The position numbers were made by a program, and so were the translations under genes. Shown here piece by piece: positions 1 through 39,834 of a stretch of 40,339 nucleotides of DNA (the stretch's first letter is position 1; each line of letters begins with the position of its first letter). The stretch is from contig JBGFRZ010000010.1 of the NCBI GenBank assembly GCA_041694835.1, positions 1 to 40,339 of the forward strand. The letters are read 5' to 3'. This DNA is from Ignavibacteria bacterium (GTDB lineage: Bacteria > Elusimicrobiota > Endomicrobiia > PHAN01). The notes beneath the pieces are model-generated. The model was given only the letters and a program-made list of their open reading frames with translations, was not told the DNA's origin and did not search any database.

Positions 1-2
1 CC

Positions 3-3000
3 TCTTCAGAGTTTGTAGTTGCTCCATCGCTTAATCGCTCCATCGCTCAATCGCTGTATTACTGGCGAGTCCGCGCCCGGGACAACGCTGGTAATTTTTC
101 CCTATACCCTACCCCCTATACCCTAATCGTCGACACAACACCACCTCCTGCGGTAAATGTGTTGACATCGCCGTTAAATGGTATGGCTACAAATCAACTG
201 ACGCTCAATTTCACCTGGTCGACTGTAACAGACACTCCCGCTGGTGTCCGAAACTATATATTGCAGTTATCTACCGCTAGTGACTTCAGTGTCTTGAGTT
301 ATTCCTCATACACCATCGCTTCATCGCTCAATCTCTCCATCGCTCAATCTTCATACACCTGGCGGGTTAATGTTCAAGACAACGCATTAAATTACACAAC
401 CTCAACGGTGAGATGGACAGTGGTGGTTGACACGACGCCCCCGTCGGCGCCATCTCTGACGGCGCCGTTAGACGGTGCGGCTACGAATCAAACGACATTG
501 ACATTCAGTTGGTCTAGTTCGGATGAGAGTGGTTTTCGCGGTGGCTCCGGCATAAACGGCTATGAGTTTTATATCTCCACCACTTCAGATTTTTCCGTCT
601 TTACCTCTTCAGAGTTTGTAGTTGCTCCATCGCTTAATCGCTCCATCGCTCAATCGCTGTATTACTGGCGAGTCCGCGCCCGGGACAACGCTGGTAATTT
701 TTCCCTATACCCTACCCCCTATACCCTGACCATTGACACAACACCACCGAGCATAGTTGATAATCAACCGGGAGATGATGTTTGGCGGCCAATGGCAGGC
801 ACACTCTATAATGTGGATTTCCACGATACAGGTTATGCCCAATCAAGGCTTTATTCCATACAGTATGCCGTTTCAACGACACCGTTTCTTGGAGCGCCTC
901 TTGTGATAAATTGGACCAACATAGTGACCCCGCCGGCAAATCTGGCTTCTTTTACAGATAACTGGTCGGTTTCGTTTGGCCCGCTCCTTGAAGTGGTTAC
1001 GAACTATGTTTCAGTAAGAGCAATGGATTTCGTTGGAAATACCTCTACTTCTACGGACATCTTTTACATAAGAAAAGATGTGTCTGACCCCGTCGTTTTA
1101 GATAATCAACCTGGCGACGATGTCTGGCGCAGAGTTGCAATGCCCGATGGCTATAATGTGGATTTTCAAGATGACGGCGGCTCACTCCTGAATTATGCTC
1201 AGTGGCGCGCTTTCAAGAACCTTGCCGACGGAACGAAGGTCTATCACACCGCATGGTATAACATATTTGTCTCGACGAATATCGCTTTGTATACAGCCGA
1301 CTGGTCTGTTGACTTTTCAACTCTCACCGAAGGAACGAACCACATAGAGGTGAGGGTTTTTGACAACGCCGCCAACCCTCTAACCATTCTAACATATCCC
1401 GCTCCGTTCTATGTAAGAAAAGACACCACCCCGCCGGTGTGTCAGGATTTTCAGACGGGCGACGACGTATGGCGAACTTCAAACACAGGACTTTACGATG
1501 TGCAATTTGTCGACGCTTTAAGCGGTTCAGGGATTCAAAAATTTGAAGTTATTGCATCAACAATGGCGGATGGCAATCCGCCCGCTACACCTTGGACGCT
1601 TGTTTTGACGACGAACACGCACTCTTACACCGTCCCGTGGTCCCTACCCGCTTCCGTGTGGGATGCTTTGCCGTCAGGGCCGCAGAGGAATTTTATTTCC
1701 TGCCGAGCAATGGATTTTGCGTTCAACACATCAACTGTTTTGACGGATGCTTTTTATGTTATGAAAGACACTGTTCCACCGAGAATAGTTGATAATCAGG
1801 ATGGCGACGCTCCCTGGCGCCGATTCGGCGGAACGGTTTATGATGTTGACTTTTACGACTACGAATCCTTGCTTCGCGGTGCGCAGTATATCTCAAGAAA
1901 TGGTCCAAATCCGACGGATACCCCATGGGGTCTCGGCTGGGTCAGTATTTTCGGTTCAACAGGAACTCCGTCTCATACAACCGACTGGTCGGTGGATTTT
2001 ACAAATCTCCCCGAGGGCGCCAATTACATATTTGTCAGGTCCTCGGACACGGCGGGTTTACAGAGTGAGCCGTCTGTTGCGGTGTTTTATGTCAGAAAAG
2101 ACATCACTACTCCCGCAATAGTTGATAACCAGGATGGCGACTTCGCCTGGCGCTCAACTTCAGGCACTCTTTATGGAGTGTTTTTTCAGGATGCAATATC
2201 AGGTGTTACGACGGCACAGTATCAGATAAGAGACCCGTCAAACGCTATTCTTGTTGACTGGACAAGTATATTTGGGGGCACCACTGGCTTTATTAACTAC
2301 AACTCTTCGTGGAGCATTTCGTCTGTGGCGTTTAACTCCCTTTCAGAAGGAACTACGAATTTCGTTTATGTCAGATGCAATGACAATGCCGGCAATTCGC
2401 TTACACTTGGTGCAGCCGCGTTTTTCATACTTAAAGACACCACCCCGCCTTTTTGTGTTGTAAATCAAAATTATTACGAATCCACCCACGGCGACTGGTT
2501 TGTTGATGTCGACTTCTTTGACCCCCCGACACCCGGAAGAGTGCCCGGCGGCTCAAGATTAAACTACGCTCAGTATAAAATTCATACTCTGCCAAATGAG
2601 GGCGGTGAGACAAGAAAACCCTGGACGAATATTAGCGGATTTACATCCGGCACTACTTTTTATGTTGATGGCTGGAAAATTGACTTTTCTGCCTTACCTA
2701 TTGGAACGACCTGTTATGCATCAGTAAGAGTTGTTGACCTTGCGGGTATTACATCTACCTGGATAGATGCCTTCCGTGTTTTAAGAACCACGCCAACAGC
2801 GCCGATTATAACAGACAATCAGCCGGGCGACTACGGGTGGTATAATTCTTCGGCTACTTTTTTGCAGCAGTTCTACGACGTTGATTTTGCTGTCGGACAA
2901 GACGCATTTCTCTCTACAATGAGCGTGATTGTTCGCAGCGGCATTCTTGGCGCGGGTGTTCTAGTCGTCGGCGAAACCATAGTCATATCGACGGCAAATG

Positions 3001-6000
3001 TTGCCGCTTTTACCGCCAACTGGCGGGTTATACCTTCGACATTTTCTCCCGACCACTACATATGGGATTTATTAAGAGAAGGAACGAATTATGTAACCGT
3101 TAGGGCATATGATACATTGGGCAGTAGTTCCTCGCTAACCGATGTGTTTTTTGTTAGAAAAGATACAACTTCACCACCAGTGCCTGTGTTATCTTCACCA
3201 TTAAATAATTCTGCTACAAACCAGTTATCAGTAAACTTTTCATGGAATCCGTCAGTGGACCTTACCTCCGGCACTTCGTTTTACACATTGCAAATATCAA
3301 CTGATATAAACTTTGGAGCGATTTATTATTCAACCCAGTCACGAGTCACCAGCCACCAGTCACCAACATTGCCTCAGTCAACTTATTATTGGCGCGTCAA
3401 TGCCATTGACAATGCCTCTAACTACTCCCTATACCCTACCCCCTATACCCTGATTGTTGACACAACTCCACCGACAGTTTCAAACCCGACTTTGCCAGCA
3501 AATGGCACAATCACTAATTCTAACTCTATAAACTTTCAATGGACTTCTGCAACTGATGCTTTCTCCGGACTCAAGCACTACACATTACAAATCTCCACTG
3601 ACATAAACTTCGGAGCGATTTATTATTCAACCCGGTCACCTTCCACCAGTCACCAGCCACCAGTATTGCCTCAATCAACATACTACTGGCGTATTCGTAC
3701 TGAAGATAACGCCGGCAACTATCAACTATCAACTATCACCTATACACTTCTTATTGATACTACACCACCATCAGTTCCGATTTTAACAAGCCCCGTAAAT
3801 GAGCAGGCTACAAACCAAATGAATTTGACTTTTAACTGGTCTACTTCCGACGATACTGGTTTCCGTGGCGGCTCCGGCATAAACGGCTATGAGTTTTATA
3901 TCTCCACAACTTCGGATTTTTCCGTCTTTATCTCTTCGGAGTTTGTAGTTACTCCATCGCTTAATCGCTCCATCGCTCAATCGCTGTATTATTGGCGGGT
4001 CCGTTCCCTTGACAATGCTTTTAACTACTCCCTATACCCTACCCCCTATACCCTGATTGTCGATACTTCTGCGCCGAGAATTATTGACCTTCAACTGGGT
4101 GATGACCAGTGGCGAAATAACCCCGGAACAACTTACAATGTTGACTTTGAAGATACTCTTTCACGGCTTCATACCCTGCAGTATACGGTATTCTCCACTG
4201 CCGACCAAACAGGCCAGCCCATAATAGGATGGACAAACATCGCAGCGAATATAAATGCCGAAACTTTCATTACGGATTGGACGATTGATTTTGCCGCATT
4301 GCCCGAGAATACAACTTGCCATGTTTCCGTCAGGGCCTGGGACAATCTTTTACAATATACAACTTCCTTCAATGTGTTTTATGCGCTCAGAGATGTCACA
4401 AGACCCATAATAACCGACAATCAACCTGGCGATGACGTCTGGAGGCGGGCAAATACCGGTTTATACAATGTTCTTTTTGATGATGATGGCGGCGCTCGTC
4501 TTAGAAATTTTCAAACAAGGGTTATGTCCGGTGCGCTTGGTTCAGGTGCGACAATACAGGACTGGACTGTCTCCGACACTATAATTTCCGGCGCTACTTT
4601 TTTCAACATACCATGGCCGCTGAATTCCACGACATGGAGTTTAATGCCCGAAGGAAAATCTCACATTTCAGTGCGCCTGTTGGATAATTCCTGGTCGCCT
4701 ACACTTGGATATAACACAGATTCTTTAACAGATGCATTCTATGTCTTAAAGGATACTACCGTGCCGACGATTGTAAACAATCAATCGGGCGATGTCGCCT
4801 GGAGAAATTCAAATTACGCGACTTACAATGTTGACTTTATGGACGCTGTCTCCGGTTCAGGTATTCAAAAATTTGAAGTTCTTGCATCAACAATGGCGGA
4901 TGGCAATCCGCCCGTTACACCCTGGACGGTTGTTTTGACGACGAACACTCATAGTTATACGTCGGACTGGACGCTTCCGCAGAGCGTCTGGGACGCTCTT
5001 TTGACAGATGCGACAAATTACATATCCATTCGCGTCTTTGATTTTGCAGGCAATGTTTCAACAATGACGAATGCGTTTTTTGTTTTGAAGGACGCTCTTG
5101 CGCCGTTTGTCAACAATCTTCAAGATGGCGACAATATATGGCGCCGCCTGAACGACGGAGTTTACAACTTGGATTTCTTTGATACGGGCGGCTCTCGCCT
5201 GAATAAATTCCAAATCCGCGCTTCAACCATTGGCTACGGCTTCTTGCCTTTTGTCTTTGATTGGTCTGACAGCGGAACAACCATCTCCGGGACGACTTTT
5301 TACACAGACAACTGGTCACTGCTCACTGCTCACTGGTCACTTCTTCCGTCAGGCACAAACTATATTTCGGTAAGAGCGTTTGATTTTGCAGGTTCAACTT
5401 TTACCGTCACCGTCGGATTTTATGTTTTAAAAGACACTGAGCCGCCGACGGGACTCGCCAACGCTCCGTCTCATTCTTCAACTACAACCTTCAACGTTCC
5501 ATATTCGGCGCAGGACTTTGGTTTTTCAGGTATCAATTTTGTCAAACTTTACTATACTTTGCAGACGGTGTCGCCCTTTACATGGACACATTATATAACT
5601 ACGACGACAAATCCGATTTCATTTACCGCGCCGCAGGAAGGGACGCACGGATTTAGAATTGTTGCCTATGACCGCGCTGGCAACACCGACGAAGCCGACC
5701 CGCCGCCATCTGCAACACCTCCCGAGTCGTCAACGCTTCTTGACATCACGCCTCCAACGGTAAACGACCAGCAGGCGGGAGACGACGTTTGGCGAAATTT
5801 TGCAAAACCTGACGGTTATGCAGTATACTTTAACGACACCGGCTCCGGGCTTGACACGGCGCAGTATATAATCCGCGAGACGGCCGACCCCGCAAGCCCC
5901 ACCCTTAAAGGGTGGACTACCATATTTTCGTCGGCGTCGCAAAATATCACTTCATATAATGAAAAATGGCAGATTGATTTTGATGCCTGTAAGTCATCGT

Positions 6001-9000
6001 GGAGTTATGTCTCTGCGCGCGTCTGGGATATAGTGGGAAGAACAACTACAGTCAACAATGTCTTCTGGGTAAAGAAAGATATTGCACCAGCGGTTATTTC
6101 ACATAACGAATTCGCTGAGGGCGGCGACAATACCTGGCGAAATGTCGCACGCGCTGGAGGCTATGATGTAGATTTCTTCGACGGGCTTTCAGAACTCTCA
6201 AGAGCAGAGTACGCAGTCCACAGCTCATCGGTAGTGGGGGGATTGATTCCCCCCTACATTGTGGACTGGACAGACATAGCGACCGCAATTTCTTCCACGA
6301 ACTATACGACAAACTGGTCTGTCAGTTTCACCCCGCTTCTTGAAGCCGCAACAAACTTCGTCCATGTGCGGCTTACGGATATAGCGGAAAATGTCTCAAC
6401 TTATTACGCTTTTTATATCCTAAAGGACACTACTACACCTACCGTCGCCAATAATGAAGTCGGACAGGACCCCGTCTGGCGCGCGGCTTCAAGAAACTAC
6501 GACATCGATTTCTTTGATTACAAGTCACGGCTTGACGCGATTCAATACAGAGCGTTTATTTCTACCGGCGGACTTAACCCCATTACGACATACTGGCAGG
6601 ATATTGTTCCAGCGCCGCTTGCCTCCTCTGAATACACCGCGAATTTTACACTTAACTTTGAACTTCTTCAAAATGGAACAAACTATATCGCCGTGCGCTC
6701 GCGTGATATCGCCGGAAACACTACGACGCAGTTTGATTTATTCAGAGTCCTTCGCGACAATGTTCCACCGACAATCGTGGACAACCAGCCGGGTGACGAT
6801 GTCTGGCGTGCGTCAAATGTGGCGACTTACGATGTAGATTTTGTTGACACGCTTTCAGGCGTTACAACTGCCCAATACAGAATTTATCCGTCTCCGTCTA
6901 TGGGCGGAACACCGCTGACGGCTTGGACGACCATTTACCTCGGCACCGCTGTTTCAACTTATTCCACAAACTGGCAACTGGCACCTGCCGACTGGGCGGC
7001 TATCCCCGAGGGAGTCAGCTATGTCTCTGTCCGCTGTTTTGACCTTGTTGGTAACACTTCAACCCATGTAGATGCCTTCTATGTCAGAAAAGACACAACC
7101 ACTCCGACAATAGTTGACAACGAACCAGATGACGAAACATGGTATAACAGCGGACGAAATTACGATGTGGATTTTCACGATTACTCGTCGTTGCTGAACA
7201 ATGCCGAGTATAGCGCATTTGCCGGCGGTTATCAAACAGGCGGAGTCGTTATTCCATGGACGGCGCTATTTAACAACTTAAACTCATCTTCCTATGTAAG
7301 CGACTGGCCGGTGAATTTTGGTGCCTTGAATCAGGGATACAACTATATCTCAGTCAGAGCATATGACAACGTTGGCAATGTCCGAACAGCGGACGTTTTC
7401 TATGTCAAAAAAGACACCGCTCCGCCGTCACAAATCACGAATCTTAATGCTACAACAGGAAACAATGAAGGCGAAATAAACCTGTCATGGACGGCCCCAT
7501 CCGCCCCTTCGCCAGGAAGCGGGACAAGTCGGTATATTGTAAAGTTTGCCACCTTCGTTATTACGGAATCGAATTTTGATGCCGATGCGAATGTCAGGAC
7601 ATTTTCTCAAACATGGAACCCATCTGCCGCCGGCACAACTGAAAACAAAGTTATAACCGGACTTTCGCAGGGCAGATGGTATTATATTGCAGTAAAAACC
7701 GGTGATACTGCCGGTAATGTTTCAGTTCTGGCTTTATCTAATCAAACTCAGTCAAAGACAGACACTTTTCTTCCGGGCACGATTACCAATCTTTTGGCGT
7801 CCCCTGGTGATTACATGGGTCAGGTGAACCTTTCATGGAGCGCACCTGGCGACAACGGCAACATAGGTAATCTCACAGGGACATATATTGAGGGCGACAG
7901 TTATGCCGGATGGTATCGCCTCAGGCACTGGGAAAACATAAACCCCGGAAGTAATTTTGATACAGGGGGATATGTAGAAATCAATAACCCATTTTCACCC
8001 GCTCCCGTCGGTTCAATTGAGAATTTCACATTGGGCGGATTAAATCATAGTTCAACTTATTTTTTTATAGTAAGAACATTTGACAAAGCGAGTAATTTTT
8101 CTACTTCCAACTCAACATCTTCTATGCCATCTCCTCCTGGGGCTGCGAAAGGTCATATCTTATGGGGTTCAGAGACTTCAAATGTGCCAAGAGGAGCTCT
8201 GTGGGAGCCACCGAGCTGGGGTGCTGCCGGAACTCTACCAACCGTCACTTTTCCGACGGGTCATAGATTTGAATTTGTTAGAGTCGCTGCCTGCCAGACA
8301 TTAAGAAATGAAAAACTTACGCTTTTCAAAACCGGTGATGGTGATGCAACGCTTGAAGCATTAGGTAATGTATATTTACAACGTTGGACTGGAACCACCT
8401 GGGAATATATAGACCGACTGAATACAACAGTAAACAACATGCGAGATACCGTTCGCGATTGCGATTTAGCATACGAGCAGACATCAGGCAGGTGTCTTAT
8501 CGCTTACAACAATGGCACAGCGGGACAACTCACATATCGTGTGTGGTCATCAACTGCCGGAACCTGGTCAATAGGACCTACTAACCTTATACTTACCGGT
8601 GTGACAGGTGCGGTTAACTGGGTGCGATTAGAACCGCGACCTAATTCAAATCAAATAATGTTAGCGACGCTTGATGCAAATTCAGACATTTTCTGTGCAC
8701 TATGGGATGGCGATACAAACTCATTCTTGTCCATGTCTACATATGTCCCCACAGTTTCCGCCGCTATTGCCACAAGAGAATGTTTTGATTTAGCCTGGGA
8801 GACACAAAACGAAAGATGTATGCTCCTCTGGGGCGAAGGAACGGCGACGAGATATTCACTGTGGTCGTCGACAGCAAATCGGTGGGTAGTTCAGAATGGA
8901 CCAGGTTCACCGAACATAGCCGCTACTGCGAACTGGCTCAGCCTTGCTGCGGACCCAAGAAGCAATTCAAACTATATAGGAATGACATCCATAGACGGCT

Positions 9001-12000
9001 CCCTTGACTGGAATGTTTCTATATGGAGTGGGACTTCATGGGGCGCTCTGCCTGCTGAAGACCCAACAATGGAAACGAACGCTTCCCGCCCAACTGATAT
9101 TGCCTGGGAAAAAGATTCCGGTAGATGCATAATAGTTGCCGGTGATTTGGATGCAAGAGAAATCTCATTTATCGGCTGGTCGGAAGTGTTAGGTTGGCAT
9201 AACCCGATAACGGGTGCGGCGACCACACCATCAGTAGCGCCGAAAACACCAACAGGGACTTTAGGTCTTTTAGGTGATATAAACTGGCTCGGACTTGTTG
9301 CAGATCCGAACCAAAACAAAATGATTTGTTACATAATTGACCAGGCAGCTGACTTAACTACAATCAACTGGACTGGTGCTGGATGGTCAGGTAAAAAAAT
9401 CCATGAATTAACCGTTGCAATTGCAACAAGAGAATGTGCATCGTTAGCACTTGACAGACACGACATAGTTCCACCGACATATACCGATAACCAACCCGGG
9501 GATGACACATGGAGGGTTTCAAATACAGGCAGTTATAATGTTTCATTCAACGATACCGGTGGCTCATATCTTAGAAACTTTCAGATAAGGGCTACAACAG
9601 GAACCGCTTTGACATCTCCGGTAATCCTTGATTGGACAAATAATCTGACATTCCCTGCCCAAACAAACTCTTATACCACACCTTGGGCACTTACTTCCGT
9701 CGTATGGGACAATCTAAGGGATGGGCTTAATTATGTGCATATAAGGGTTTTTGATGGCGTCGGAAACACTGCGACGGGTGAAAATGTCTTTTATGTCAGA
9801 AAAGATACAACCCCGCCAACCATTCCCATATTGTCAGCACCGTTAGACGGTGCGACTACAAATCAGACAATTATAAATTTCTCATGGAGTTCCTCTTCCG
9901 ATTTAACTTCGGGAGTCAACGGCTATGAGTTTTATATCTCCACAACTTCGGATTTTTCCGTCTTTACCTCTTCGGAGTTTGTGGTTACTCCATCGCTTAA
10001 TCGCTCCATCGCTCAATCGCTGTATTATTGGCGCGTCCGCACCCGAGACAACGCTGGCAATTTTTCAACGTGGAGTTCAACGCGCTCCGTGCTGATAGAC
10101 ACTGTCATCCCACGAATTGTCAATAATGTTTCAGGCGATTTTATCTGGCGAAATTCGTCAGGCACACCTTATGATGTCAGATTTTACGACGAACTCTCAC
10201 GGCTTGCAACCGCTTACTATCGCGTCTGGACTTCAACCGGTCAGATGGGAACACGACTTGTTGACTGGACGAACATAAATTCTTTGTTGATAAATGCAAC
10301 TTACTATGAAACCAACTGGTCAATCCCGGCATCTTCCTGGGCACTGCTACAAAACGGCACTAACTTTGTGACCGTTAGAGTTGATGATTTGGCAGGAAAT
10401 ACTTCTACCTGGGTTGATGCGTTTTTCATTAGAAAAGACGAGCTCTCGCCGCCGGTTCCGTCTCTGACTGCACCGTTAGACGGTGCGGCTACAAATCAGA
10501 CAACACTGACTTTCAGTTGGTCCGCTGTCTCAGATGAGAACTCAGGAGTTGGCGGCTATGAGTTTTATATCTCCACAACTTCAAATTTTTCCGTCTTTAC
10601 CTCTTCGGAGTTTGTAGTTACTCCATCGCTCAATCGCTCCATCGCTCAATCGCTGTATTACTGGCGAGTCCGCGCCCGAGACAACGCTGGTAATTTTTCC
10701 CTATACCCTACACCCTATACCCTAATTGTTGACACTGCACCGCCGACAATACCGTCTCTAATTTCACCTTCAAGCGGCACTGTTACAAACATTCAACAGC
10801 CAGCTTTTGATTGGACTGATTCAACAGACACCTCGGGAATTTCAAATTACGAATTCCAGATTTCAACCGATGTAAACTTCGCGGTTTTAACCGACCAATC
10901 TCTCCCCGCCACATCTTACTTTCTACCTTCTACCTTCTACCCGTCCACCTTATATTACTGGAGAGTCCGCGCTCAAGATGTCGCCGTCAATTTCTCTACC
11001 TTTACCTCTATCTTTACCTTAATCGTCGACACCGCGACTCCGCGGATAATGAACTATGAATCAGGCGGCGATTTGGTGTGGAGAAATATGATTAAGCCGG
11101 GCGGATACAATATTGATTTTGACGATATCGGGCTTGCAAAGATAAATAATATCCAGTATAAAGTCCACACCCTACCGTCTGAAGGCGGAAGCATACTGGT
11201 GACATGGGAGACGATTAGAAGCACATTTCCGCCGTATACCACATTGTTTGCACCGCCGCTGAACCTGTTGTCCTGGACAACGGATTTTGGCGTCAATTAT
11301 GACCTGCTTCAAAACGGAACAAATTATGTCTCTATGCGTGTAAGCGACCTTGCAGGGAACACTTCTACATGGGTTGATGTGTTTAGAATTTTGCGAGACA
11401 TTATACCGCCGACAGTAAACGACATGCAGACGGGTGATTTCGCATGGCGAAGTTCGTCGGGAACGACTTACGCCGTTTATTTCAACGATACCGGCGACTC
11501 GCTGCTTTCCAAATTCCAAATTTCTGTCTCTACTAATCCCTATCCCCTATCCCCTATCCCCTCTGTTTTTGATTGGACGGATAGAATAACCGGCATCAAC
11601 GCACCGTCATACACAACGCCCTGGCCGCTGAGTGCCGCGCAGTTTGCAACACTTCCCGACGGAGCATCAAGTTATGTCTCCGTACGCTGCTTTGATTTGG
11701 CAGGCAATACGACGACATTCTCCGATGCGTTTTTCATTCTGAAAGACACAGTAGCGCCTTTTTGCGTCAATAACGAAACTACCGACCGCGGATGGCTCAC
11801 TTCAAATCCGGGGGCGATCTGGGACATAGATTTCTACGACCCGCTTTCTGCTTTTACTCCGGGCGGCTCAAAATTAAACAACATATTCTATCGGGCGAAG
11901 TCGTCCACGGGCGGTATAATAATTGATTGGAATGCAATCGCAACATCTCAAAATACGACTTTCTATATAACGAATTTTTCTGTTAATTACGACGGCTTAT

Positions 12001-15000
12001 ATGACGGAATAAACTATGTAGATGTTCTTGCAAATGATTTTGCAGGCAATGCAACCACTTATATAAATGCTTTTACGGTTAAAAAAGACACCACATCGCC
12101 GAGGATTGAAGTGGCTTTTGACACGACCACAGTCAACTGGGTCAATACCTCACAGGTCTATGATATTAATTTTTACAAGCGCGGCGCAACTGACCTGCAT
12201 ACAATACAATATACTGTCTGGACAGGACCCAACAGAACAGGAACAAATAAAATACCCGGCGATGGCACCTGGAGCAATATCGGCACGCCCCCGCTTAATG
12301 TTTCTGAATATACAACTGATTGGCCGGTAGTTTTTGCCGACCTTACTAACGGGGGGACTAACTTTGTCTCGGTCAGATGTTGGAATGTAGCAGGTGCGAC
12401 ATCCACAATAATTGATACTTTCAGAATCTTCAAAGATGTGACAAATCCGTCAATAATAGATAATGTTCCGGGTGATGATACTATCTGGCGCTCGTCAAAT
12501 GTTGCCGCCTATAATGTTGACTTTTTTGACTCACCCGGTCCACCACAGACGGGCTCGCTGTTGAGTAAATTTCAATTAAAGATAACTTCCGGGACAAATC
12601 AAACTGGACTGTTATATCAGGACTGGACGGACGAAAAACTTAATATCGCTTCAACTTTTTATGTTATTGATTGGCCGCTGAATTGGTCCGCATGGCTCAA
12701 TTTACGCGAAGGGAGAAATTATATCTCTGCAAAGGCATTTGACAATGCAAGTAATGTTTATGAACTCTCAGATATTTTCTTTGTATTGAAAGATACAACT
12801 TCACCGACGATAAACGACCAGCAGACAGGTGATGATAATTGGCGACGGCTTAATATAAGTTCATACAGCGTTTATTTCGCTGACACCGGCGGCAGTAGAT
12901 TATCCCGATTTGAAATTTCCGCTTCTACTACCCCCTACCCCCTATCCCCTACCCCCTTAATTGGTTGGACCACCGTTCAATCAGGTATAAACGTTGAAAC
13001 TTTTGTTTCCAGCTGGTCGTTACCTTCTTCCGTCTGGGCTGCATTGCAATCCTGGACAACAAACTACATTTTCGTCCGTGTTTTTGATAATTCCGTCCCC
13101 GGAAATTCATCTACAACTGCAAATTCTGTATTCTATGTCTTGAAAGACACCGTCCCACCGAGAATAATTGACAATGAAACAATTGACCGTGGTTGGTTTG
13201 CCTCTAATCCAGGCGCTATCTGGGATATTGATTTTGAAGACCGCCTGCCTGAACATTGCTCAAAACTTGAGACGGCGCAATGGACTGCATTTACCTCACC
13301 TAACCAAAGTGGCTCGCAGGTTGTCGGCTGGACAAATATTTTTACAAATTTAGGGACAACAAATTGGACAACAAACTGGGACCTGGGACTAACAACATGG
13401 ACACTACTTGCCTCTGGAACTAACTTTATATGTGTTCGTGTCTGGGATATTGCCGGGTCAACAGAAACATTATCAGATGTATTTATCGTCAAAAAAGATA
13501 CTTTTGGTCCGACGATAATTGATAATCAACCCGGGTATGATACCTGGTTGGCTGCTGACCCCGGGTCAATCTGGAATGTTGACTTCAAAGATGAACTATC
13601 AAAACTTGCAAGTGCGTATTACAGAATTTCTACACAGCCAAATTTGACCGGGACAATACTGACTCCCTGGACAACTATATTTGCTACTTACGGTTCACAA
13701 CTTACGACTTACGATTCTAACTGGCCGCTGGCTCCAAACCACTGGACACTTTTACCCGAGGGCACTTCATACATTACCGTGACCGCATATGATAACCTGA
13801 ACAACCAGACGACATTTTTTGATGTATTTCATATCCGTAAAGACACAACAACTCCATACTGTGTGGATAATCAACCAAACATTTTTGCAGATACACAGGA
13901 TGACTTATCAAATATAGATATTGATTTTTATGATAGAGGCGGGTCAAAAATAAATTATGTTAGATATACTGTTAGACCATCAGCGGGTTTACCGCCGGAG
14001 TTTATTATCAACTGGAAGAATATCCCCGGTATTGCTGATGGATTAAATACAACATACTATATCACTAACTGGTCAATTACAGAAGCATGGCCATCACTGC
14101 CGAACAATGCAACAAGTTATGTATCAGTTAGAGTAGTTGACTTTGCAGAGCATACCACAACTTTTGTAGATGCATTTTTGGTCTATAAATCTGCTATTGG
14201 ACCAACAATAACTGATAATGTAAATGAAGCACTCCTACCTTACTATAATACACTTGTTAATGCATATTTTGATGTTGACTTCCAGTCAAATTCCGGTGCA
14301 AACCTCACTTATTTTGAAATAAAAGTTACTACGGGTCCATCAGAAACAGGTGCAACTATAACTGACTGGTACAAGGTCGCAGATATAAATGCAATTACTT
14401 ATACTACCGACTGGCAAATTGCAGAGTCAACATTTAACGCGATGTGGCAAGGTTTAAATTATGTCCATGTGAAAGTTCGCGATGCTGTACCAACACAAGC
14501 ACAATTAAACAATGTCTTCTATATCAAGAAAGATACCGCACCACCACTAATTGATGACTTTCAGGCTGATGCAACATTTTATGCTCGCACAGCAGGAACG
14601 AAATATAATGTTGATTTCCGTGACCTCGGTATAGGAGTTGCTACAGGACAATATCTTGTCTCATATTCTTCAACCAATATATTAGGGACGGTCCTTATTT
14701 CCTGGACTACAATTTTTGCTCTCTCTCCACAATCGTCTTATACTACCGACTGGGAAGTAGATTTTGCAGCATTGCAGGAATGGTGTACGAACTATGTCTC
14801 AGTGAGATGTTACGACGGCTTCGGATATCTTACAACTTCCTATGCGGTATTTTCTGTCTGGAAAGATACTACGGCGCCAACAGTTCCATCGTTGACTTTG
14901 CCGTCGGAAAATGCGCTATTGAGCGCTCAATTAGTGAACTTTAACTGGTCCGCCTCTGCCGATACTCGTTCAGGAGTTGATAATTACACTCTGCAAATTT

Positions 15001-24671: not shown

Positions 24672-24690
24672 TACATTAGAGGATAGAGAG

Positions 24691-27402
24691 ATGAAAGGAC
24701 AGAGGACAGAGTGGCAGAGCACAAGTGCACAAGAGCACAAGGGCACAAGAACACAAGTCAGGGCAGCAGAGCAGCGGTGGCTCGTGGCTCGTTTCCTCCA
24801 GTCACCAGCCACCATCCACTATTCGCTATTCTCTCATCTCTCATCTCTCTCCTCTATCCGCTATTCGCTTCCCGCTTTCCATTTTTCCCTGTCTACTATC
24901 TACTTATTTCTTATTTCTTATTTCTTATTTCTTGCTTCTTTTTTATACGGCGCTTCCTGGCCGATGTTTAGAAATAACATCCAGAGGAGTGGAGGTATTC
25001 AAGAGGTGGCAACCCCGGCATCATCACCCCAGGGATGGTTTTTCGAATTGCAGGGCGGGCTCATCGGCTCTCCTGTGGTCAAAGACGATATTGTTTATTT
25101 TGGTGCAAGGGATGGTTCAGCATGGTCACTTGATGCGTTAAGTGGCGAGGTTATCTGGCAATACTCGACATCAGGATTTGCCGATTCAACTCCCGCCATC
25201 TGGCAGGATCGTCTTTATATAGTGTCTCGCGATGGAAAGATTTATTGTTTTAAGCGAAAGTATCTTACAGGCGAAGACGGACTTCCTTTATGGAGTTTTG
25301 ACACGCAAAGCACCGCGGCTTCATCACCTCTTGTTGTTGACGGGAAAGTTATTGTTTTATCCGGACCAAAACTCGACGGTCGCCCTGAGGGGTATCTTTA
25401 CATAATAGATGCCCTGACGGGAATACTCATTAAAAAAGAGCAGTTGAGTATGTTTAGTTACGGCTCGGCTGCTTTTGAAAATAATAGAATATATTTTGCT
25501 CTAAACGATGGCACTATAGCATGCTATGACATAGTTCAAAACAAATTTGTCTGGTCGGAAAAACTTTTAAGCAGCATGAATTACTCGGCTCTTGCTTTAG
25601 CGGGTGGAGTGCTGTACTGTTATTCCGGCGATATGGATAGAAAACTTTACGCAATGAACTCTCAGTCGGGATTTGTGGTCTGGGTGTCATCGCAGTTAAG
25701 CAGAGTTGCCACAGACAACACATCGGTTTCTGTTCACGACAACAGGGTTTTGGTAAATATTTATCCGTCAGATGTTTGGGAAGTTAGTTGGGGTGTGGTG
25801 AGGTCAAGTCAGAGTGTGCTCTGTTTCAACCTTTCAGGCGGGCTTTTGTGGAGAAAGGACTTCTTTGTGGAGGGCTCTCCCAAGGATTCTTACGGTGTGG
25901 CTTCATCACCTGGCGTTATTGGAGACATCGCTTATGTTGGCACAAATAGCGGCAACTTGTTCGCATTAAGTATGAGTTCAGGGGCGGTTCTTGCTCAATA
26001 TGGATTCAATTCGCCTGTTGTCTGCTCGCCGGCTATTTCAAACGGATGGCTCTATTTTGGCACTGTCGATGGAAAATTTTATGGAATAAAATCTGATAAG
26101 ATACTTTCTATAAAGGCGCCAGATGCGGGAGATGTGGTCATTAACTATACCCCGGTTACTGTTGTTTCGTCAAAATTTGAAAACGAGGGCTATGTTCTCG
26201 AATATTCCGCTAACGAAACAAACTGGGCAATAGTTTCAAGCGGAACGATTGTTTCCGGAACGACGACAATGTTTGATTGGAATACGGCAGCCCTTATGGA
26301 TGGCACATACACCATAAAACAAACTCTGATAAATAAACAAGAAAATTTTGCGGCGAATAAAATAATAATAGATAATTCACCGCTTCCCCCGACAGCTCTT
26401 ACAGCATTAATCTCGCAGGAAAATAGAGTTACTCTCGGATGGATGAAATCGCTTGATGACGGTGGCGGAAACAATGACGTTGTTTCTTATGAAATTTATA
26501 AATCGACTACCGCTGATATTTTTCAGGATTTCATAACCGTAAGCCGCGGGACTGTTGAATATATAGATACTATAACAAATGAAAGCACCTATTACTATAG
26601 GATTATGGCAGTAGATAAACGTTCAAAATCATTGCCCAGCGGAGCTATTAGTATATATGCCGGCAGCTCAGGTTTACAATCATCTATAAGCGCCACAGTT
26701 ACCCCTGAAGCCGGTGGAACTGTAAGACTTGAGTCGGGCGGGAAAGTCGCCGAAGTGGTTTTTTATGCTGGAAGCGTAGATGAAACGGTTACCGCCACTA
26801 TATCTGTGCCGCTAGAATACGACAAAACTGTGCCACCAGATGCCAGAGGGACAAATCTGGTTTATGAAATAAAACTTTCCAAGAAAGTAGAACTTAAAAA
26901 ACCCGCGGATATAAAAATTAAGTATACAGACGCCGACATAGCCGGATTGAGCAAAGAAAAACTCAGACTTTACTGGTATGATGAAGAAAAGAAAAAATGG
27001 CTTATGGTAGATTCGTCGAATCCCGTCCCCCAGGCTCATGTTGTCGAGGCGAAATTGTGGAGATTTGGTCTTTTTAGGATTATGGAGTTCAGCCCTTCTT
27101 TCGACGACATTTTGAAAGACGAACACGTCTATACTTTTCCGTCGCCGGCCAGAGGCGAACAGGTGAATTTTAAGTTTTTGATTTACACTCCAGCGGTATT
27201 GAAAATAAGCGTATATAGTATAGCCGGGGAGATAATATGGGAGAGTAATGAATATGATTTTAAACAGAAAGACATCGGGAAGGTCCAGGTGATACCGTGG
27301 AGTATAAGAAATATCGCGACGGGGATGTATCTTTATAAGTTTGAAGCAAGAAGCGGTGACAGGATAAAACGGGCACTCAAAAAGATGGCGATAATACATT
27401 GA
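24691..27402 (+). CDS. PQQ-like beta-propeller protein with FN3 domain and C-terminal T9SS type-A sorting-like domain
   Basis: WPMFR start of the mature part, then SPVV...VYFG.DG / W...SSP PQQ-repeat motifs and an FN3-like 'PTALTA...VTLGW...YYYRI' segment. The C-terminus 'VYTFPSP...ISVYSIAGE...W...ATGMYLY...KKMAIIH' resembles a CTD. ATG 24691 (AGGA upstream) is preferred over GTG 24655. Confidence 0.85.
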   Translation: MKGQRTEWQSTSAQEHKGTRTQVRAAEQRWLVARFLQSPATIHYSLFSHLSSLSSIRYSLPAFHFSLSTIYLFLISYFLFLASFLYGASWPMFRNNIQRSGGIQEVATPASSPQGWFFELQGGLIGSPVVKDDIVYFGARDGSAWSLDALSGEVIWQYSTSGFADSTPAIWQDRLYIVSRDGKIYCFKRKYLTGEDGLPLWSFDTQSTAASSPLVVDGKVIVLSGPKLDGRPEGYLYIIDALTGILIKKEQLSMFSYGSAAFENNRIYFALNDGTIACYDIVQNKFVWSEKLLSSMNYSALALAGGVLYCYSGDMDRKLYAMNSQSGFVVWVSSQLSRVATDNTSVSVHDNRVLVNIYPSDVWEVSWGVVRSSQSVLCFNLSGGLLWRKDFFVEGSPKDSYGVASSPGVIGDIAYVGTNSGNLFALSMSSGAVLAQYGFNSPVVCSPAISNGWLYFGTVDGKFYGIKSDKILSIKAPDAGDVVINYTPVTVVSSKFENEGYVLEYSANETNWAIVSSGTIVSGTTTMFDWNTAALMDGTYTIKQTLINKQENFAANKIIIDNSPLPPTALTALISQENRVTLGWMKSLDDGGGNNDVVSYEIYKSTTADIFQDFITVSRGTVEYIDTITNESTYYYRIMAVDKRSKSLPSGAISIYAGSSGLQSSISATVTPEAGGTVRLESGGKVAEVVFYAGSVDETVTATISVPLEYDKTVPPDARGTNLVYEIKLSKKVELKKPADIKIKYTDADIAGLSKEKLRLYWYDEEKKKWLMVDSSNPVPQAHVVEAKLWRFGLFRIMEFSPSFDDILKDEHVYTFPSPARGEQVNFKFLIYTPAVLKISVYSIAGEIIWESNEYDFKQKDIGKVQVIPWSIRNIATGMYLYKFEARSGDRIKRALKKMAIIH
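24716..24869 (+). repeat. Composite tandem-array repeat, copy 1
   Basis: GCACAAG(N) units, a core, then CAGTCAC/CAGCCAC, CTATTCG and CTCTCAT units. Nearly identical to the reverse complement of 33947-34144. Confidence 0.9.
24903..24930 (+). repeat. Perfect (CTTATTT)x4 in the signal-peptide-coding region
   Basis: Read directly; encodes part of LFLISYFLFL. Confidence 0.92.
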
Positions 27403-29123
27403 GATTGTTGAATAAAATTTTGAGGCGGGTTATGACAGAAAACAGAGTTCGGAAAATAGTTCAAGGGTTCAAGAGTTCAAGAGTTCAAGAGTTAAAGGGT
27501 TTGAAACCCCACAACTATCTAACTCCCAAACTTCCCAACTCTTTCGCGGCCACCGGCTCTTACCTATTTACTATTTACTATTTGCTATTCGCTATTTGCT
27601 ACCTACTACCACCCTACCTTTTTTCTGCGCAGATTCATCCCAATGCGGGCACTACATCGGCAACGTTTCTAAAACTTCCTGTGGGCGCCCGGGCAGCTTC
27701 TCTATCAGGTTATATAGGGGGTGCGTCGGGTCCTTCTGCTATATATTGGAATCCGGCGGGGCTGGCGGATACAAGATCCAGCGAGTTTGAATTTTCACAC
27801 ACCGGGCACTTTCAGGAGATAAAACACGACTTCGTTGGATACATCCATCCGCTTAAAAAAGGAGCAGTTGGCTTTGGACTAATTTCTCTTTATGCTGGTG
27901 GTATCGAAGGAAGAAGCGGAGTGCTCGATTCTGATGAAAGATATGTCAATCTATATCAGGTGACAATGCCCGAATATCGCTACAGCGTCTCGGATATTGC
28001 GCCTAAGGTGGCTTATGCAGGAAAAATGAACAGCGATATTTCCCTCGGCGGTAATTTTAAGTTTATCCATCAAAGAATAGAGAATAACTCCGGGTATACA
28101 TTTGCAGCGGATTTTGGCGCTATATATAAACTCAATGAAGAAATTCGACTTGGCGCTGTTTTGAAAAATATAGGTCCTGGCATAAAATTTGTGGAAAAAT
28201 TTTATATATTGCCAATGGAACTTGGCGCTGGACTTTTGTACCAGAACAAAAAATTCGGTGTTTCGCTTGATGCTGTTCAGCCAATAGACAACTATTTAAT
28301 AACTTCTCTGGGTTTTGAGTATTCGCCAATTGTTCATCTTTCATTGCGCGGTGGTTATAGATATCGGCTTTATGGTTGGAGATTGGGAAATTATGCGGGG
28401 GTTTCTTGCGGCTTCGGAATAAATTTTTACGGAACAAAAATAGACTATGCTCTAAGCTCATACGGCGATCTTGGTCTTTCGCACAGGTTTTCAGTTGGGG
28501 TTGAGTTTGCTCAAGTTGGAGGTCTGTATAAATTTTTAAGAGAGACCATAGGCTTGAGACAAAGGTCTGATGAGCGAAAAAAGAATGAAGAAAAGCCCGA
28601 AGTTTTAAGACCATTGCCGCTAAAGTTGGAAGAAAAAGGCGAACAAAATCTTGTCTCTTTATCGATGCCACGCGTTTTTTACAGTTATATCGCCGATATA
28701 AAACTTTCAAATGTAGATACGATAAATAAAATTTTTACATATAATGTTTCGGTTTCAACAACTCCCGACGGGGAACCACCTTTGTCTATGTTAAAAGGTA
28801 GAATAACGACCAGAAAAAGCCTCAATGACATAAAAACAACAGGATTTATCGTTGGAGTTTCAACGCAAGCATTTCGGATTGAGGATGAAGATGTAATGAA
28901 ACTCATAGAATTTGGTGAAGTTTTTGACCAGAAAATAATGTCTGCCGAGGTTTATATCAGCCCGTCAACAGACTCTCGTGATGTCAATATATATTCTTTT
29001 GAAAATGACGAACCTAAAAAGTTGAGTTATGAAAAAGTAGTGTTATCCATTGACGAGAAACCATTATATAAGATAATGCTTGAGAAAGCCGAAAAAATTG
29101 CCATAACCTTGAAAACAAAGTAA
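27399..29123 (+). CDS. PorV/PorQ-family outer-membrane beta-barrel protein with C-terminal extension
   Basis: Motifs 'FLKLPVGARAASL...SAIYWNPAGLA', 'GAVLKNIG', 'LSLRGGY' and 'IDYA..SYGDLG.SHRFS' are typical of PorV/PorQ-like proteins. The start is either TTG 27399 (overlapping the upstream TGA) or ATG 27432. Confidence 0.82.
   Translation: MRLLNKILRRVMTENRVRKIVQGFKSSRVQELKGLKPHNYLTPKLPNSFAATGSYLFTIYYLLFAICYLLPPYLFSAQIHPNAGTTSATFLKLPVGARAASLSGYIGGASGPSAIYWNPAGLADTRSSEFEFSHTGHFQEIKHDFVGYIHPLKKGAVGFGLISLYAGGIEGRSGVLDSDERYVNLYQVTMPEYRYSVSDIAPKVAYAGKMNSDISLGGNFKFIHQRIENNSGYTFAADFGAIYKLNEEIRLGAVLKNIGPGIKFVEKFYILPMELGAGLLYQNKKFGVSLDAVQPIDNYLITSLGFEYSPIVHLSLRGGYRYRLYGWRLGNYAGVSCGFGINFYGTKIDYALSSYGDLGLSHRFSVGVEFAQVGGLYKFLRETIGLRQRSDERKKNEEKPEVLRPLPLKLEEKGEQNLVSLSMPRVFYSYIADIKLSNVDTINKIFTYNVSVSTTPDGEPPLSMLKGRITTRKSLNDIKTTGFIVGVSTQAFRIEDEDVMKLIEFGEVFDQKIMSAEVYISPSTDSRDVNIYSFENDEPKKLSYEKVVLSIDEKPLYKIMLEKAEKIAITLKTK
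27459..27605 (+). repeat. Octamer (GTTCAAGR) and heptamer (CTATTTR) arrays in the 5' end of the PorV-like gene
   Basis: GTTCAAGR-type x5 at 27459-27498, AACTCCCA-like units at 27505-27536, CTATTTA/CTATTTG/CTATTCG units at 27564-27605. Confidence 0.88.
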
Positions 29124-31317: not shown

Positions 31318-31341
31318 TCCCTGTCCTCTATCCTCTATCTG

Positions 31342-32619: not shown

Positions 32620-32642
32620 TATTCAGATTAAAAATTTTGAAA

Positions 32643-32705: not shown

Positions 32706-32735
32706 TTTATCATTTTAATGGCCTCCTGATATTAG

Positions 32736-32830
32736 TGCACAAGGCACAAGGCACAAGGGCACAAGTGCATAAGTCATCTGTCATCCATCATCCGTCATTC
32801 GTCATTTCCGCACACTATTCGCTATTTGCT
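32736..32830 (+). repeat. GCACAAG / (C)GTCAT / CTATTCG tandem arrays downstream of queA
   Basis: gcacaag-gcacaag-gcacaagg-gcacaagt-gcataagt ... ctattcg-ctatttg. Confidence 0.8.
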
Positions 32831-32839
32831 AGCCACTTC

Positions 32840-33928: not shown

Positions 33929-33946
33929 TTATACTGAATAGCAAAT

Positions 33947-34144
33947 AGCGAATAGCGGATAGAGATGAGAGAGCAGAGGTGAGAGATGAGAGAATAGCGA
34001 ATAGTGGATGGTGGCTGGTGACTGGAGGAAACGAGCCACGAACCACGAGCCACCGCTGCTCTGCTGCCCTGACTTGTGCTCTTATGCACTTGTGCTCTTG
34101 TGCCTTGTGCTCTTGTGCCCTTGTACCTTGTGCACTTGTGCTCT
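33947..34144 (-). repeat. Composite tandem-array repeat, copy 2 (upstream of queA)
   Basis: The reverse complement matches 24716-24869, differing mainly in unit copy number. Confidence 0.9.
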
Positions 34145-34152
34145 TGCTTTTT

Positions 34153-34176
34153 GCGGGATGGCAATCCCGCCGCTAC
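34153..34176 (-). repeat. GTAG-type REP-like hairpin
   Basis: Minus strand reads GTAGCG-GCGGGAT-TGCC-ATCCCGC. Confidence 0.7.
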
Positions 34177-34218
34177 CGATAACCGATTACTGATTACTGA
34201 TTACTGATTACTGATTAC
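34177..34218. repeat. Heptamer tandem array (YGATWAC)x6
   Basis: cgataac-cgattac-(tgattac)x4. Confidence 0.92.
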
Positions 34219-34224
34219 CTGTCT

Positions 34225-38115: not shown

Positions 38116-38119
38116 GTTG

Positions 38120-38464: not shown

Positions 38465-38476
38465 GTTTGCGGGAAT

Positions 38477-39013: not shown

Positions 39014-39082
39014 AAATCCAAAGCGGCTAAAAATTTTAACAAATCCGATTTTATTTTAATCATAACGGCATTATGAGATTAT

Positions 39083-39138
39083 TATTCATTATTCGTCATT
39101 CATTATTTGCTGTTCGCTATTCATCATTTGTTATTCAC
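39083..39138. repeat. Degenerate heptamer array (TATTCAT-like)x8
   Basis: tattcat-tattcgt-cattcat-tatttgc-tgttcgc-tattcat-catttgt-tattcac. Confidence 0.8.
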
Positions 39139-39154
39139 TTTTCCCGACGACAAA

Positions 39155-39172
39155 TTCGAACAAATGTTCGAA
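39155..39172. promoter_or_regulatory. Palindromic operator-like site matching the Gram-positive-type LexA (Cheo) box
   Basis: TTCGAAC-AAAT-GTTCGAA; the core CGAACAAATGTTCG fits CGAACRNRYGTTCG. Confidence 0.4.
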
Positions 39173-39232
39173 AAATGTTTCACAAACCAATTACTTGAGC
39201 TCTTGTGTCCTTGTGCTCTTTCTCCCGCTATC

Positions 39233-39256
39233 GTGGAATAGCAATTCCACCGCTAC
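39233..39256 (-). repeat. GTAG-type REP-like hairpin
   Basis: Minus strand reads GTAGCG-GTGGAAT-TGCT-ATTCCAC. A second hairpin CCCGCCA-N5-TGGCGGG follows at 39270-39288. Confidence 0.7.
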
Positions 39257-39342
39257 AACGCCGATAAACCCCGCCATGCCGTGGCGGGTCGACAACTACA
39301 TTGCCGTTCGCCGTTCATTGTTCACTGATAACTGATAACCGA

Positions 39343-39834
39343 TTACCGATTATTCGCATCTATCCCCTGCCTACTTATTCTTGGTAATCCTTTCGCTTTC
39401 CATCTGTTAATGCCGCCTGAGATGTTGTAGACCTCTGTGAAATTTAGTCCTTTCATTATGTCCAAAGCGCTTCCGCTTCTGGCTCCGGTTCGGCAATAAA
39501 TAAGATATATTTTATTTTTGTCCGGGTTGTCGAGGTCGTTTCTGAAAGTTCTGGAATAGTAATCTAACATGATGGCGCCTTCTATGCGCTCGGATGAAAA
39601 TTCCCCGGGAGTCCGCACATCAAGAATTACAAAATTTGGGTTGTTCTTATTTTTTTGTATTAAATCAAACGCTTCTTGCGGAGTAATGTTTTTAATCGTC
39701 TGAGTTTCCGACTTTTCAATACTATCTTCCTTTGAGGCGATATCCTTGGACTGGAGACATCCGCCGAGTATAAATAACGGAAGCATTATTCCCACAAGCA
39801 GCAAAACCGACAATTCCCGCTCATTATTAATCAT
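39343..39834 (-). CDS. Rhodanese-like domain lipoprotein
   Basis: Lipobox LGGC, 'ILDVRTPGEF', active-site CRTGARS, 'GGI..W...G.P'. A strong GGAGG SD lies upstream. Confidence 0.9.
   Translation of the reverse strand: MINNERELSVLLLVGIMLPLFILGGCLQSKDIASKEDSIEKSETQTIKNITPQEAFDLIQKNKNNPNFVILDVRTPGEFSSERIEGAIMLDYYSRTFRNDLDNPDKNKIYLIYCRTGARSGSALDIMKGLNFTEVYNISGGINRWKAKGLPRISRQGIDANNR

Follow-up and report, generated by a model that had tools for sequence, protein, structure and literature searches.

Heptameric short tandemly repeated repetitive (STRR) sequences of heterocystous cyanobacteria are a known repeat class, and REPIN elements were reportedly described together with RAYT (repetitive extragenic palindrome-associated tyrosine) transposases by Bertels and Rainey in 2011. 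More generally, heptamer repeats, repetitive extragenic palindromes (REPs) and palindromic elements read in frame are each known, and their origin and their effects on proteins are poorly understood. Heptameric simple sequence repeats (SSRs) have been treated for Nostoc and, as GGGAATC-type heptamers, for Xanthomonas (Rehm et al. 2015, PMC4692102), and GTAG-tagged REPs by Di Nocera et al. (2013, PMC3733652). Rickettsia palindromic elements (RPEs) are summarized in a review of miniature inverted-repeat transposable elements (PMC10969869), while repeats within leader coding regions are exemplified by CTCTT in the leader peptides of the phase-variable opa outer-membrane proteins (PMC3745409) and by CT repeats in oipA (PMC10564699). 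We analyzed a stretch of 40,339 bases (the window), which is the entire contig JBGFRZ010000010.1 (C66) of a 1.9-Mb Elusimicrobiota genome (G000) in 89 contigs, with a completeness of 97% and a contamination of 0.4%. Within a gene for a giant surface protein, and between its neighbors, this window carries a system of 7- and 8-bp tandem arrays and GTAG-tagged hairpins.

We conclude that this system is best seen as a variant of the selfish repeats already known from bacteria, rather than as machinery dedicated to diversification. What sets it apart is the combination of heptamers, REPs and in-frame palindromes, the use of arrays as palindrome arms, and the scale on which they are translated. Literature searches for heptamer arrays acting as signal peptides, or for such repeats in Elusimicrobiota, found neither, which is no proof of absence. 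Identical composite repeats are dispersed over the genome, and orthologous sites in relatives are empty; the enzyme, the mode of movement and the part played by slippage we infer. In our judgment, the system probably stems from modular miniature repeats of nested-palindromic build that invaded this lineage in particular, accompanied by slippage and filtered by selection.

Tandem Repeats Finder (TRF) detected 762 period-7 and 379 period-8 arrays in the whole genome, versus 36 to 45 and 63 to 70 in three dinucleotide shuffles. The comparison with codon-shuffled controls, proposed in the initial annotation of the window, gave a similarly clear excess, with 354 period-7 and 167 period-8 arrays in crude open reading frames (ORFs) versus 23 to 28 and 37 to 48 in three shuffles. 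The array load amounts to 33.3 kb (1.75% of the genome); the median array has 3.6 units and the largest has 30, and 323 distinct canonical units occur. Crude ORFs cover 87.5% of the genome, and 620 of the 1,141 arrays fall into the remaining 12.5%. The first 300 nt of the ORFs contain 307 of the 521 arrays located inside them; many belong to leaders or over-extended ORFs and are not secure as translated sequence. Purine-rich and pyrimidine-rich arrays are about equally common in genes elsewhere (93 versus 85).

In the window itself, TRF yielded 46 merged period-7/8 arrays. The giant ORF accounts for 27 and the gaps or leaders for the remaining 19; the conserved bodies of the other 11 genes are free of them. 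The claim that identical repeat families stand both between genes and in translated sequence was borne out: CTATTCG/CTATTTG units, for example, were found as described in the signal region of the PorV-like gene (27564-27601) and on both sides of queA (32818-32831 and 33936-33962). The stronger idea of a single set holds in part, as CCAGTCA, CCAGCCA, TACCTTC and CCCTATC are common to the giant gene and the gaps, whereas CAACTAT, TTACACC, CTACCCC, ACTGCTC and AACTGGC occur in the giant gene only. With heptameric SSRs (PMC4692102) and STRR sequences, this system shares many dispersed 7-nt tandem families, a strong period excess, a mostly intergenic location, a variable unit number and an obscure origin. 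It differs in the organism, in the presence of 8-nt units, in having no G-quadruplex formers, in arms that pair as palindromes and are joined to REP hairpins, and in an extensive in-frame use in signal peptides, essential enzymes and fibronectin type III (FN3) repeats.

Composites of 100 to 170 bp that are 88 to 100% identical recur at many loci. The 16-mer CAGTCACCAGCCACCA, which had been noticed in three places, is present exactly at 3647-3662 (+), 24799-24814 (+) and 34009-34024 (-), with 0.00 copies expected from shuffles. Within the core of a dispersed composite of about 100 bp, here named element A, it supplies the 3' arm of the hairpin GGTGGCTCGTGGCT / AGTCACCAGCCACC. There are 29 copies of element A of at least 45 nt (70 to 100% identical), 12 of which span the full 99-nt core, mostly at 82 to 100% identity. 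A role as a polar regulatory module was ruled out by the orientation of the copies to the next gene (16 in the same direction versus 13 opposite). Another composite, a leader cassette 98 to 100% identical between copies, heads four unrelated genes (310, 787, 534 and 311 aa) with signal peptides of 26, 30, 39 and 39 residues. It contains at least 50 nt of 5' untranslated region, the codons ATG AGA AAA CCA TTT and a CTATTCG/CTATTTG array whose unit number differs between copies. Two contigs end exactly in this cassette, implying that the assembly breaks at the repeat.

Arrays also interrupt housekeeping enzymes. Deep arrays (at least 2.8 units) occur in 71 ORFs, 59 of which have coding-like flanks in the same frame. 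We sampled 20 of the 68 non-giant ones; Pfam domains were recognized in 18, and in at least 16, ordinary proteins of the cytoplasm or membrane, the array falls within such domains or between them, so that the supposed bias toward secreted or surface proteins gave way to a lack of specificity. Array inserts were found in ValRS, LeuRS, GluRS, CarA, CarB, NuoF, HisF, ArgJ, a DegT aminotransferase, a pyridoxal phosphate (PLP) enzyme, three histidine kinases, two glycosyltransferases and others. In the histidine kinases (C56:6580-8805, C60:521-2215 and C86:2086-3516) the insert stands at about the same place in HATPase_c, and in two of them the profile resumes at position 36-37 once the insert has ended.

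One insert, consisting of a purine arm, a centre and a pyrimidine arm, is shared by ValRS (twice), an iPGM-like metalloenzyme, the PLP enzyme, CarB, NuoF, HisF and GluRS. Its plan is AGTTTAGAG, (GACAGAG/GTCAGAG)n, (AAGAGAG)n, AAAAAACTCA, (CCTCTCA/CCTCTGA/ACTCTCA)n and the end CTCAACT. The arms are complementary (TCAGAGG / CCTCTGA), only the observed orientation is stop-free, and the reading frame of the housekeeping genes continues through inserts that reach about 90 residues. Of 71 candidate starts, 35 are bounded within 420 nt by the pair AGTTTAGAG ... CTCT(C/A)AACT, in many cases symmetrically, and this motif also counts among the heptamer units. Searching strictly for the insert centre returned only 7 copies, under criteria that miss known cases. 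The HisF insert (residues 135-221) is absent from all 11 relatives that have the gene, and its peptide matches about 70 other places, all of them in this genome. RPEs, in the part of PMC10969869 that summarizes them, are likewise palindromic elements of about 100 to 150 bp, placed in frame in unrelated genes including housekeeping ones, with a recurring peptide and absent from the orthologues of relatives (for which the HisF insert alone was compared here). Unlike in RPEs, the arms are heptamer arrays of variable number, the modules also make up signal peptides and occupy intergenic DNA, and the host phylum, and presumably the sequences, are unrelated.

The suggestion that export signals are array-coded agrees with the PorV family, in which arrays apparently form the signal-peptide core in 11 of 14 paralogues examined (of 16 family matches, the two weakest were dropped, since their alignments start too far in to place the N-terminus). 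In these 11, the array follows a plausible start codon (several begin clearly with MKK or MRK) and precedes the conserved mature N-terminus (A)GTTSA.FLK. In the window PorV gene the CTATTTG array corresponds to residues 56-68, and the PorV_fam profile begins at residue 85, 16 residues downstream. The PorV orthologues of three relatives carry signal peptides of the ordinary kind. For the neighboring beta-propeller protein, six CTTATTT units code the only hydrophobic stretch ahead of the mature N-terminus and are probably the hydrophobic core of its signal peptide, the start codon being unsettled. Export by the type IX secretion system (T9SS) requires a signal peptide, and hence one is required for this protein. 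A further array-coded leader, in addition to those of these two window genes, is MRKPFTIRYSLFAICLLFAIR.... In G002, a relative of the same family, we noted a long CTTATTT-like array (G002:C8:1433-1599) that matches the unit of the beta-propeller leader. As in opa and oipA, the repeats are pyrimidine-rich, have a unit that is not a multiple of 3, lie in the signal-peptide coding region of outer-membrane proteins and are read as hydrophobic residues. They differ from those cases in their 7-nt degenerate units and in the recurrence of the same repeats in cytoplasmic enzymes and non-coding DNA, and switching is not in evidence.

The giant ORF is the ORF richest in arrays in this genome, with 25 of 200 deep arrays. 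It contains 28 loci, versus a mean of 1.42 (maximum, 5) in 100 synonymous-codon permutations preserving protein and codon usage, and 0.93 (local) or 0.84 (global) under other shuffles. The periodicity is therefore in the DNA and not a by-product of the protein sequence, although the 28 loci are not independent because the domains are duplicated. As first reported, the arrays are short and degenerate (2 to 5 units, 73 to 95% matches) and rich in C and T on the sense strand, with 21 of 27 exceeding 60% pyrimidine. Since 25 of the 27 have stop triplets on the antisense strand, this bias is explained by the avoidance of stop codons that an open frame demands.

Thirteen copies of a domain of about 100 residues in the giant protein align nearly without gaps. 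A profile of 12 copies matches the FnIII domain of chitinase A1 (1k85; E = 3.6e-5), and this sequence match is the basis of the FN3 assignment; an AlphaFold2 model of one copy from a 12-row alignment reached a pLDDT of 46 and was not used. Arrays occupy two fixed slots of this domain, of which slot 1 (before YYWRV) presumably corresponds to the strand E/E-F loop region and slot 2 (after DNAGN) to the start of strand G, as judged by the FnIII alignment and the FnIII topology. Slot 1 holds five or six different units. Slot 2 is 86 to 100% identical in nucleotides between copies whose N-terminal halves are 45 to 50% identical, and 100% identical in the pairs d3/d5 and d7/d10 (N-terminal halves, 46% and 49%), with an identical tract of 48 nt in d7/d10, which points to short-tract copying among the repeats. 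In a second domain type with five copies, the slot contains a CCCTATC or CTACCCC array in two, an antisense REP hairpin in two and neither in one. The homologous positions described for these arrays are thus fixed slots of two repeated domain types, accounted for by domain duplication and short-tract DNA copying. That the arrays keep the frame despite their 7- or 8-bp periods did not prove to be a property of the arrays: the nearly gapless alignment of the FN3 copies implies that they are replacements of the same length.

The nearest genomes are distant, with QueA at most 45 to 51% identical; a contig scan with QueA returned only 3 loci, none above 45% identity, a metagenome scan with the beta-propeller protein found no closer relative, and an exact 26-mer of element A had no match in the collections. 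In 15 relatives, sampled by 20 to 80 kb each, TRF gave 0.5 to 5.5 period-7/8 rows per 10 kb versus 6.3 here, the value of 5.5 coming from an AT-rich genome. Among giant orthologues, a single array was counted over the 24-kb ORF of G001, and G010, G003 and G004 stayed at the level of the permutations. The G002 orthologues have four, three and two arrays in ORFs of 7 to 8 kb versus a null of 0.1 to 0.25. An apparent array richness of the giant orthologues of all relatives, derived from loci of about 3 kb, was dropped after whole-ORF sampling, which left only G002 enriched. Orthologous FN3 slots have equal length and carry homologous, non-periodic sequence, with other units appearing in G002 and G003. 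Together with the HisF genes that have no insert, they supply the empty sites that the initial annotation had proposed to look for. Because the arrays are not conserved in orthologues, pure protein constraint is excluded; in-gene and intergenic arrays rise together in this lineage. Loss of mismatch repair as a cause was ruled out, MutS and MutL being intact here and in 12 relatives.

The GTAGCG hairpins are, by their sequence layout, GTAG-tagged REPs arranged like REPs and REPINs. The three copies reported from the giant gene and two gaps were recovered, all on the minus strand. The pattern GTAGCG, 7-bp stem and TGCY loop has 50 copies in the genome versus a median of 3 (maximum, 14) for 119 permuted heads. 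Stems vary in a compensatory manner (GCGGGAT, GTGGGAT, GGCGAAT, GTCGCAT), and 13 head-out inverted doublets have members 30 to 130 nt apart. Four doublets (C7:9346-9433, C7:12465-12549, C27:920-1004 and C31:14661-14748) enclose a second palindrome, CCCCTCTTAATAGAGGGG, and doublets around it are flanked by GTT(T/G)AGAGTT, which is the end motif of the enzyme inserts. Another antisense REP hairpin lies in the signal-peptide coding region of a PorV paralogue (C62:15786-15809) and is read as CGIAIQPLL.

The genome has one gene for a Y1 (HUH) transposase, which is RAYT-like (contig C41, 236 aa). It scores 48.5 bits with PF01797 (Y1_Tnp; cut-off, 23) and 62.7 with NCBIfam REP_Tyr_transpos. Profile searches of the genome gave no RVT_1 and no TnpB-type match, other transposase families lying outside the search. 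The proposed search for RAYT/TnpA or reverse transcriptase genes near the arrays left a single Y1_Tnp gene in the genome, with no arrays beside it, and no RVT_1 match. The REP 24-mer matches this genome 26 times and the other two members of the family 20 and 8 times; a further genome has 3 matches and 27 have none, and the reversed 24-mer gave none in any genome. Y1_Tnp genes are present in 15 of the 31 genomes, and in the relative G002 a REP stands about 500 nt from a Y1_Tnp match. The 24-mer is identical in G001, G002 and G003 although their QueA proteins are only about 45% identical, implying strong conservation or continuing homogenization of the hairpin. As far as these matches indicate, the REP system is old in the family and the array expansion is not. 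The REP/REPIN-RAYT systems (PMC3733652) resemble this one in the GTAG head and hairpin of about 18 bp, the tens of copies and the inverted doublets. Further likenesses are the location mostly 3' of genes and sometimes inside them, the single Y1 (HUH) gene and the conservation of the family across related genera. Here, unlike there, the RAYT-like gene has no flanking REPs and scores below the equivalog cut-off, the REPs are embedded in or flanked by heptamer arrays, and the arrays make up most of the repeat load.

The coordinates of the repeats are collected in Table 1. Downstream of the giant ORF the window encodes a BamB/PQQ-like beta-propeller protein with a type IX sorting (T9SS) tail, followed by a PorV-family barrel, a nucleotidyltransferase, an ABC pair, a YHS/ArsP permease, QueA and a P-type ATPase, as well as a radical-SAM protein, a small unknown protein and a rhodanese. 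The T9SS-type genes presumably fit a cyanobacterium poorly. This gene content agrees with the early remark that no responsible enzyme is encoded in the window. The arrays at queA are non-coding, since an in-frame TAA directly precedes its ATG. Between 24400 and 27402, the giant ORF ends in beta-propeller repeats, and the gene with the type IX tail follows in another frame, with the array leader between them. Between the radical-SAM and small unknown genes (38296-38361) there is a perfect inverted repeat of 13 nt, CCCCGTTAGAAAT / ATTTCTAACGGGG, whose arms are 40 nt apart and which has no relation to the REP family.

Table 1. Positions of the giant ORF, arrays, hairpins and composite elements (window coordinates unless a contig is named)
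Feature	Position	Strand	Unit, reading or context
Giant ORF	3..24671	+	8222 aa, 5' side open at contig start; immunoglobulin-like, FN3, lamin-tail (LTD) and beta-propeller domains; 27-28 period-7/8 arrays
FN3 slot 1, just before YYWRV	21..55, 624-658, 3952-3985, 9988-10021, 10621-10654	+	GCTC(C/A)ATC, read as PSLNRSIAQSL
FN3 slot 1	3335-3365	+	CCAGTCA
FN3 slot 1	3635-3664	+	CACCAGT
FN3 slot 1	10917-10941	+	TACCTTC
FN3 slot 1	17059-17087	+	TTACACC
FN3 slot 1	17368-17405	+	CTAACTCA
FN3 slot 1	17664-17699, 17961-17996	+	TCTCAATC
FN3 slot 2, after DNAGN	100..125, 703-727, 3422-3451, 4025-4054, 10699-10724, 17149-17174	+	CCCTATA, read as SLYPTPYTL
FN3 slot 2	3716-3743	+	CAACTAT
Slot 3, second domain type, after (K/R)F(E/Q)I.AST	11538..11562	+	CCCTATC
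Slot 3	12928-12957	+	CTACCCC
REP hairpin, antisense in giant ORF	1565..1588	-	GTAGCG GGCGGAT TGCC ATCCGCC, read as MADGNPPATP
Paralogous copy of giant-ORF REP hairpin	near 4895-4918		head GTAACG
Composite leader, giant ORF to beta-propeller/T9SS-tail gene	24672..24963	+	AGGACAG, AGAGCACA, GTGGCTC, CCAGCCA, CTATTCG, TCTCTCA, CTTATTT arrays
Element A core	24733..24831	+	hairpin 24776-24789 / 24800-24813
CTTATTT x6 array	24903..24944	+	read as IYLFLISYFLFLASF, just before mature N-terminus WPMFRNN of beta-propeller protein
Array upstream of or within leader of PorV-like gene	27458..27501	+	AGTTCAAG x5.5
CTATTTG x5.4 array	27564..27601	+	read as YLFTIYYLLFAICY, putative signal-peptide core of PorV-family barrel
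Arrays, queA to YHS/ArsP permease gene	32734..32831		GCACAAG/AGTGCACA, GTCATCC, CTATTCG/CTATTTG
P-type ATPase-queA gap, full of arrays	33936..34218	-	GAATAGC, AGAGATG, ACGAGCC, CTTGTGCT x9.5, TACTGAT x6.4
Inverted element A copy upstream of queA	33992-34097	-	91% identical
REP hairpin 3' of ATPase gene	34153..34176	-	GTAGCG GCGGGAT TGCC ATCCCGC
Arrays in gap beside rhodanese gene	39081..39352		ATTATTC, ACTGATA, GATTACC
REP hairpin 3' of rhodanese gene	39233..39256	-	GTAGCG GTGGAAT TGCT ATTCCAC; compensatory stem changes relative to other copies
Leader cassette copies	C79:30920-30981 (contig end), C6:1-62, C6:4084-4145, C6:6048-6109		

In the lineage-specific invasion that we favor, the system comprises three layers: GTAG-tagged REP hairpins, often as inverted doublets; 7/8-bp tandem arrays; and composites of 100 to 170 bp built of both. 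The arrays often consist of a purine-rich arm followed by a complementary pyrimidine-rich arm and so form nested palindromes bounded by AGTTTAGAG ... CTCTCAACT. Copies may spread by transposition-like or recombinational copying, and unit number may drift through slipped-strand mispairing. Within genes, selection would then retain copies in a stop-free orientation, of a frame-keeping length and at a tolerant site; the sites occupied are enzyme surface loops, signal-peptide hydrophobic cores and two or three fixed slots of the giant-protein domains. T-rich units, which are read as L, F, I, Y or A in all three frames, would be tolerated in signal-peptide cores. In the giant gene, array segments would subsequently be passed among domain copies by duplication and short-tract copying of about 50 to 70 nt, which would explain their homologous positions.

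Several observations weigh against this account. The RAYT-like gene is unflanked, with no REP on contig C41 and no arrays adjoining it, and its NCBIfam score of 62.7 lies below the equivalog cut-off of 80. The relative G001 has a similar number of the same REP (20) and few arrays, so that REP and RAYT alone cannot explain the array expansion, and the link of the latter to the RAYT-like gene is weak. No target-site duplication was seen by eye at the borders of the NuoF, PLP-enzyme and CarB inserts, and no autonomous partner element was found with the RVT_1 and TnpB profiles, to which the search was confined. The five giant-gene units listed above as exclusive to it have no copy elsewhere, element A has no fixed polarity to genes (16 copies versus 13), and the PQQ leader, folded as RNA, improves on its shuffles only slightly (z = -2.0), which gives weak support for one long stable hairpin. 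Finally, the giant-gene arrays replace an equal length instead of being inserted, which a simple insertion model does not predict. This last point leaves room for a template-switch or overwriting process. A still-active DNA process that overwrites short stretches with 7/8-nt periodic copies at constant length and moves leader cassettes between genes appears doubtful to us; it may, for example, be hairpin- or single-strand-based and linked to an HUH transposase, or follow a template-switching repair route.

The same-length replacement of FN3 slots in place would also be expected if the arrays had a purely local origin, in a replication or repair bias toward 7- to 8-nt slippage or template switching, with nothing mobile and shared units arising convergently. 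That a single stretch of DNA, the slot-1 16-mer, is translated in two different frames, that many of the 323 canonical units are private, and that G002 is moderately enriched with different units all fit this reading, for which a polymerase-footprint idea of heptamer excess is quoted in the discussion of PMC4692102. It is nevertheless unlikely, given that 100- to 170-bp composites recur at 88 to 100% identity at many loci, that leader cassettes are identical, that one multi-module insert is found in unrelated enzymes, and that intact MutS and MutL here and in 12 relatives give no evident mismatch-repair loss. Another reading is adaptive contingency, in which arrays are kept since a change in unit number switches or varies surface proteins, through frame shifts in leaders or variable strands of the giant adhesin. 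Leader arrays in 11 of 14 PorV paralogues and in the T9SS-tail protein, cassettes that differ in unit number, the array richness of the giant gene, unit lengths that are not multiples of 3 and the CTCTT precedent of opa (in the part of PMC3745409 that concerns it) speak for it. The same arrays, however, stand in ValRS, LeuRS, GluRS, CarA/B, NuoF, HisF and ArgJ and beside queA, where switching would be harmful or pointless, and they are short and degenerate (a median of 3.6 units; 73 to 95% matches in the giant gene); we regard contingency as quite unlikely. An assembly or binning artefact, from mis-assembled low-complexity reads or foreign DNA, might be suspected from the two contigs that end exactly in the leader cassette. 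It is extremely improbable in view of a 24.7-kb ORF that stays open through 27 arrays, housekeeping genes that remain in frame across their inserts, a REP 24-mer common to two other genomes of the family, and the completeness and low contamination of the assembly.

One small, near-complete genome, whose near relatives are almost array-free, here brings all three repeat types together, and gain, spread and tolerance become directly comparable. For the annotation of such genomes, systematically wrong start sites and fused ORFs are to be expected. Here, an entire family of paralogous outer-membrane barrels draws functional-looking signal peptides from non-coding repeat DNA, four unrelated genes share a portable leader cassette, and essential enzymes, ValRS, CarB and NuoF among them, carry repeat-coded inserts of 30 to 90 residues. 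If an overwriting process were true, it would be a new mutational mechanism by which non-coding repeat DNA is turned into signal peptides, enzyme loops and adhesin strands. Should the process be active, this organism would be tractable for studying how new protein sequence emerges out of selfish or slippage-prone DNA.

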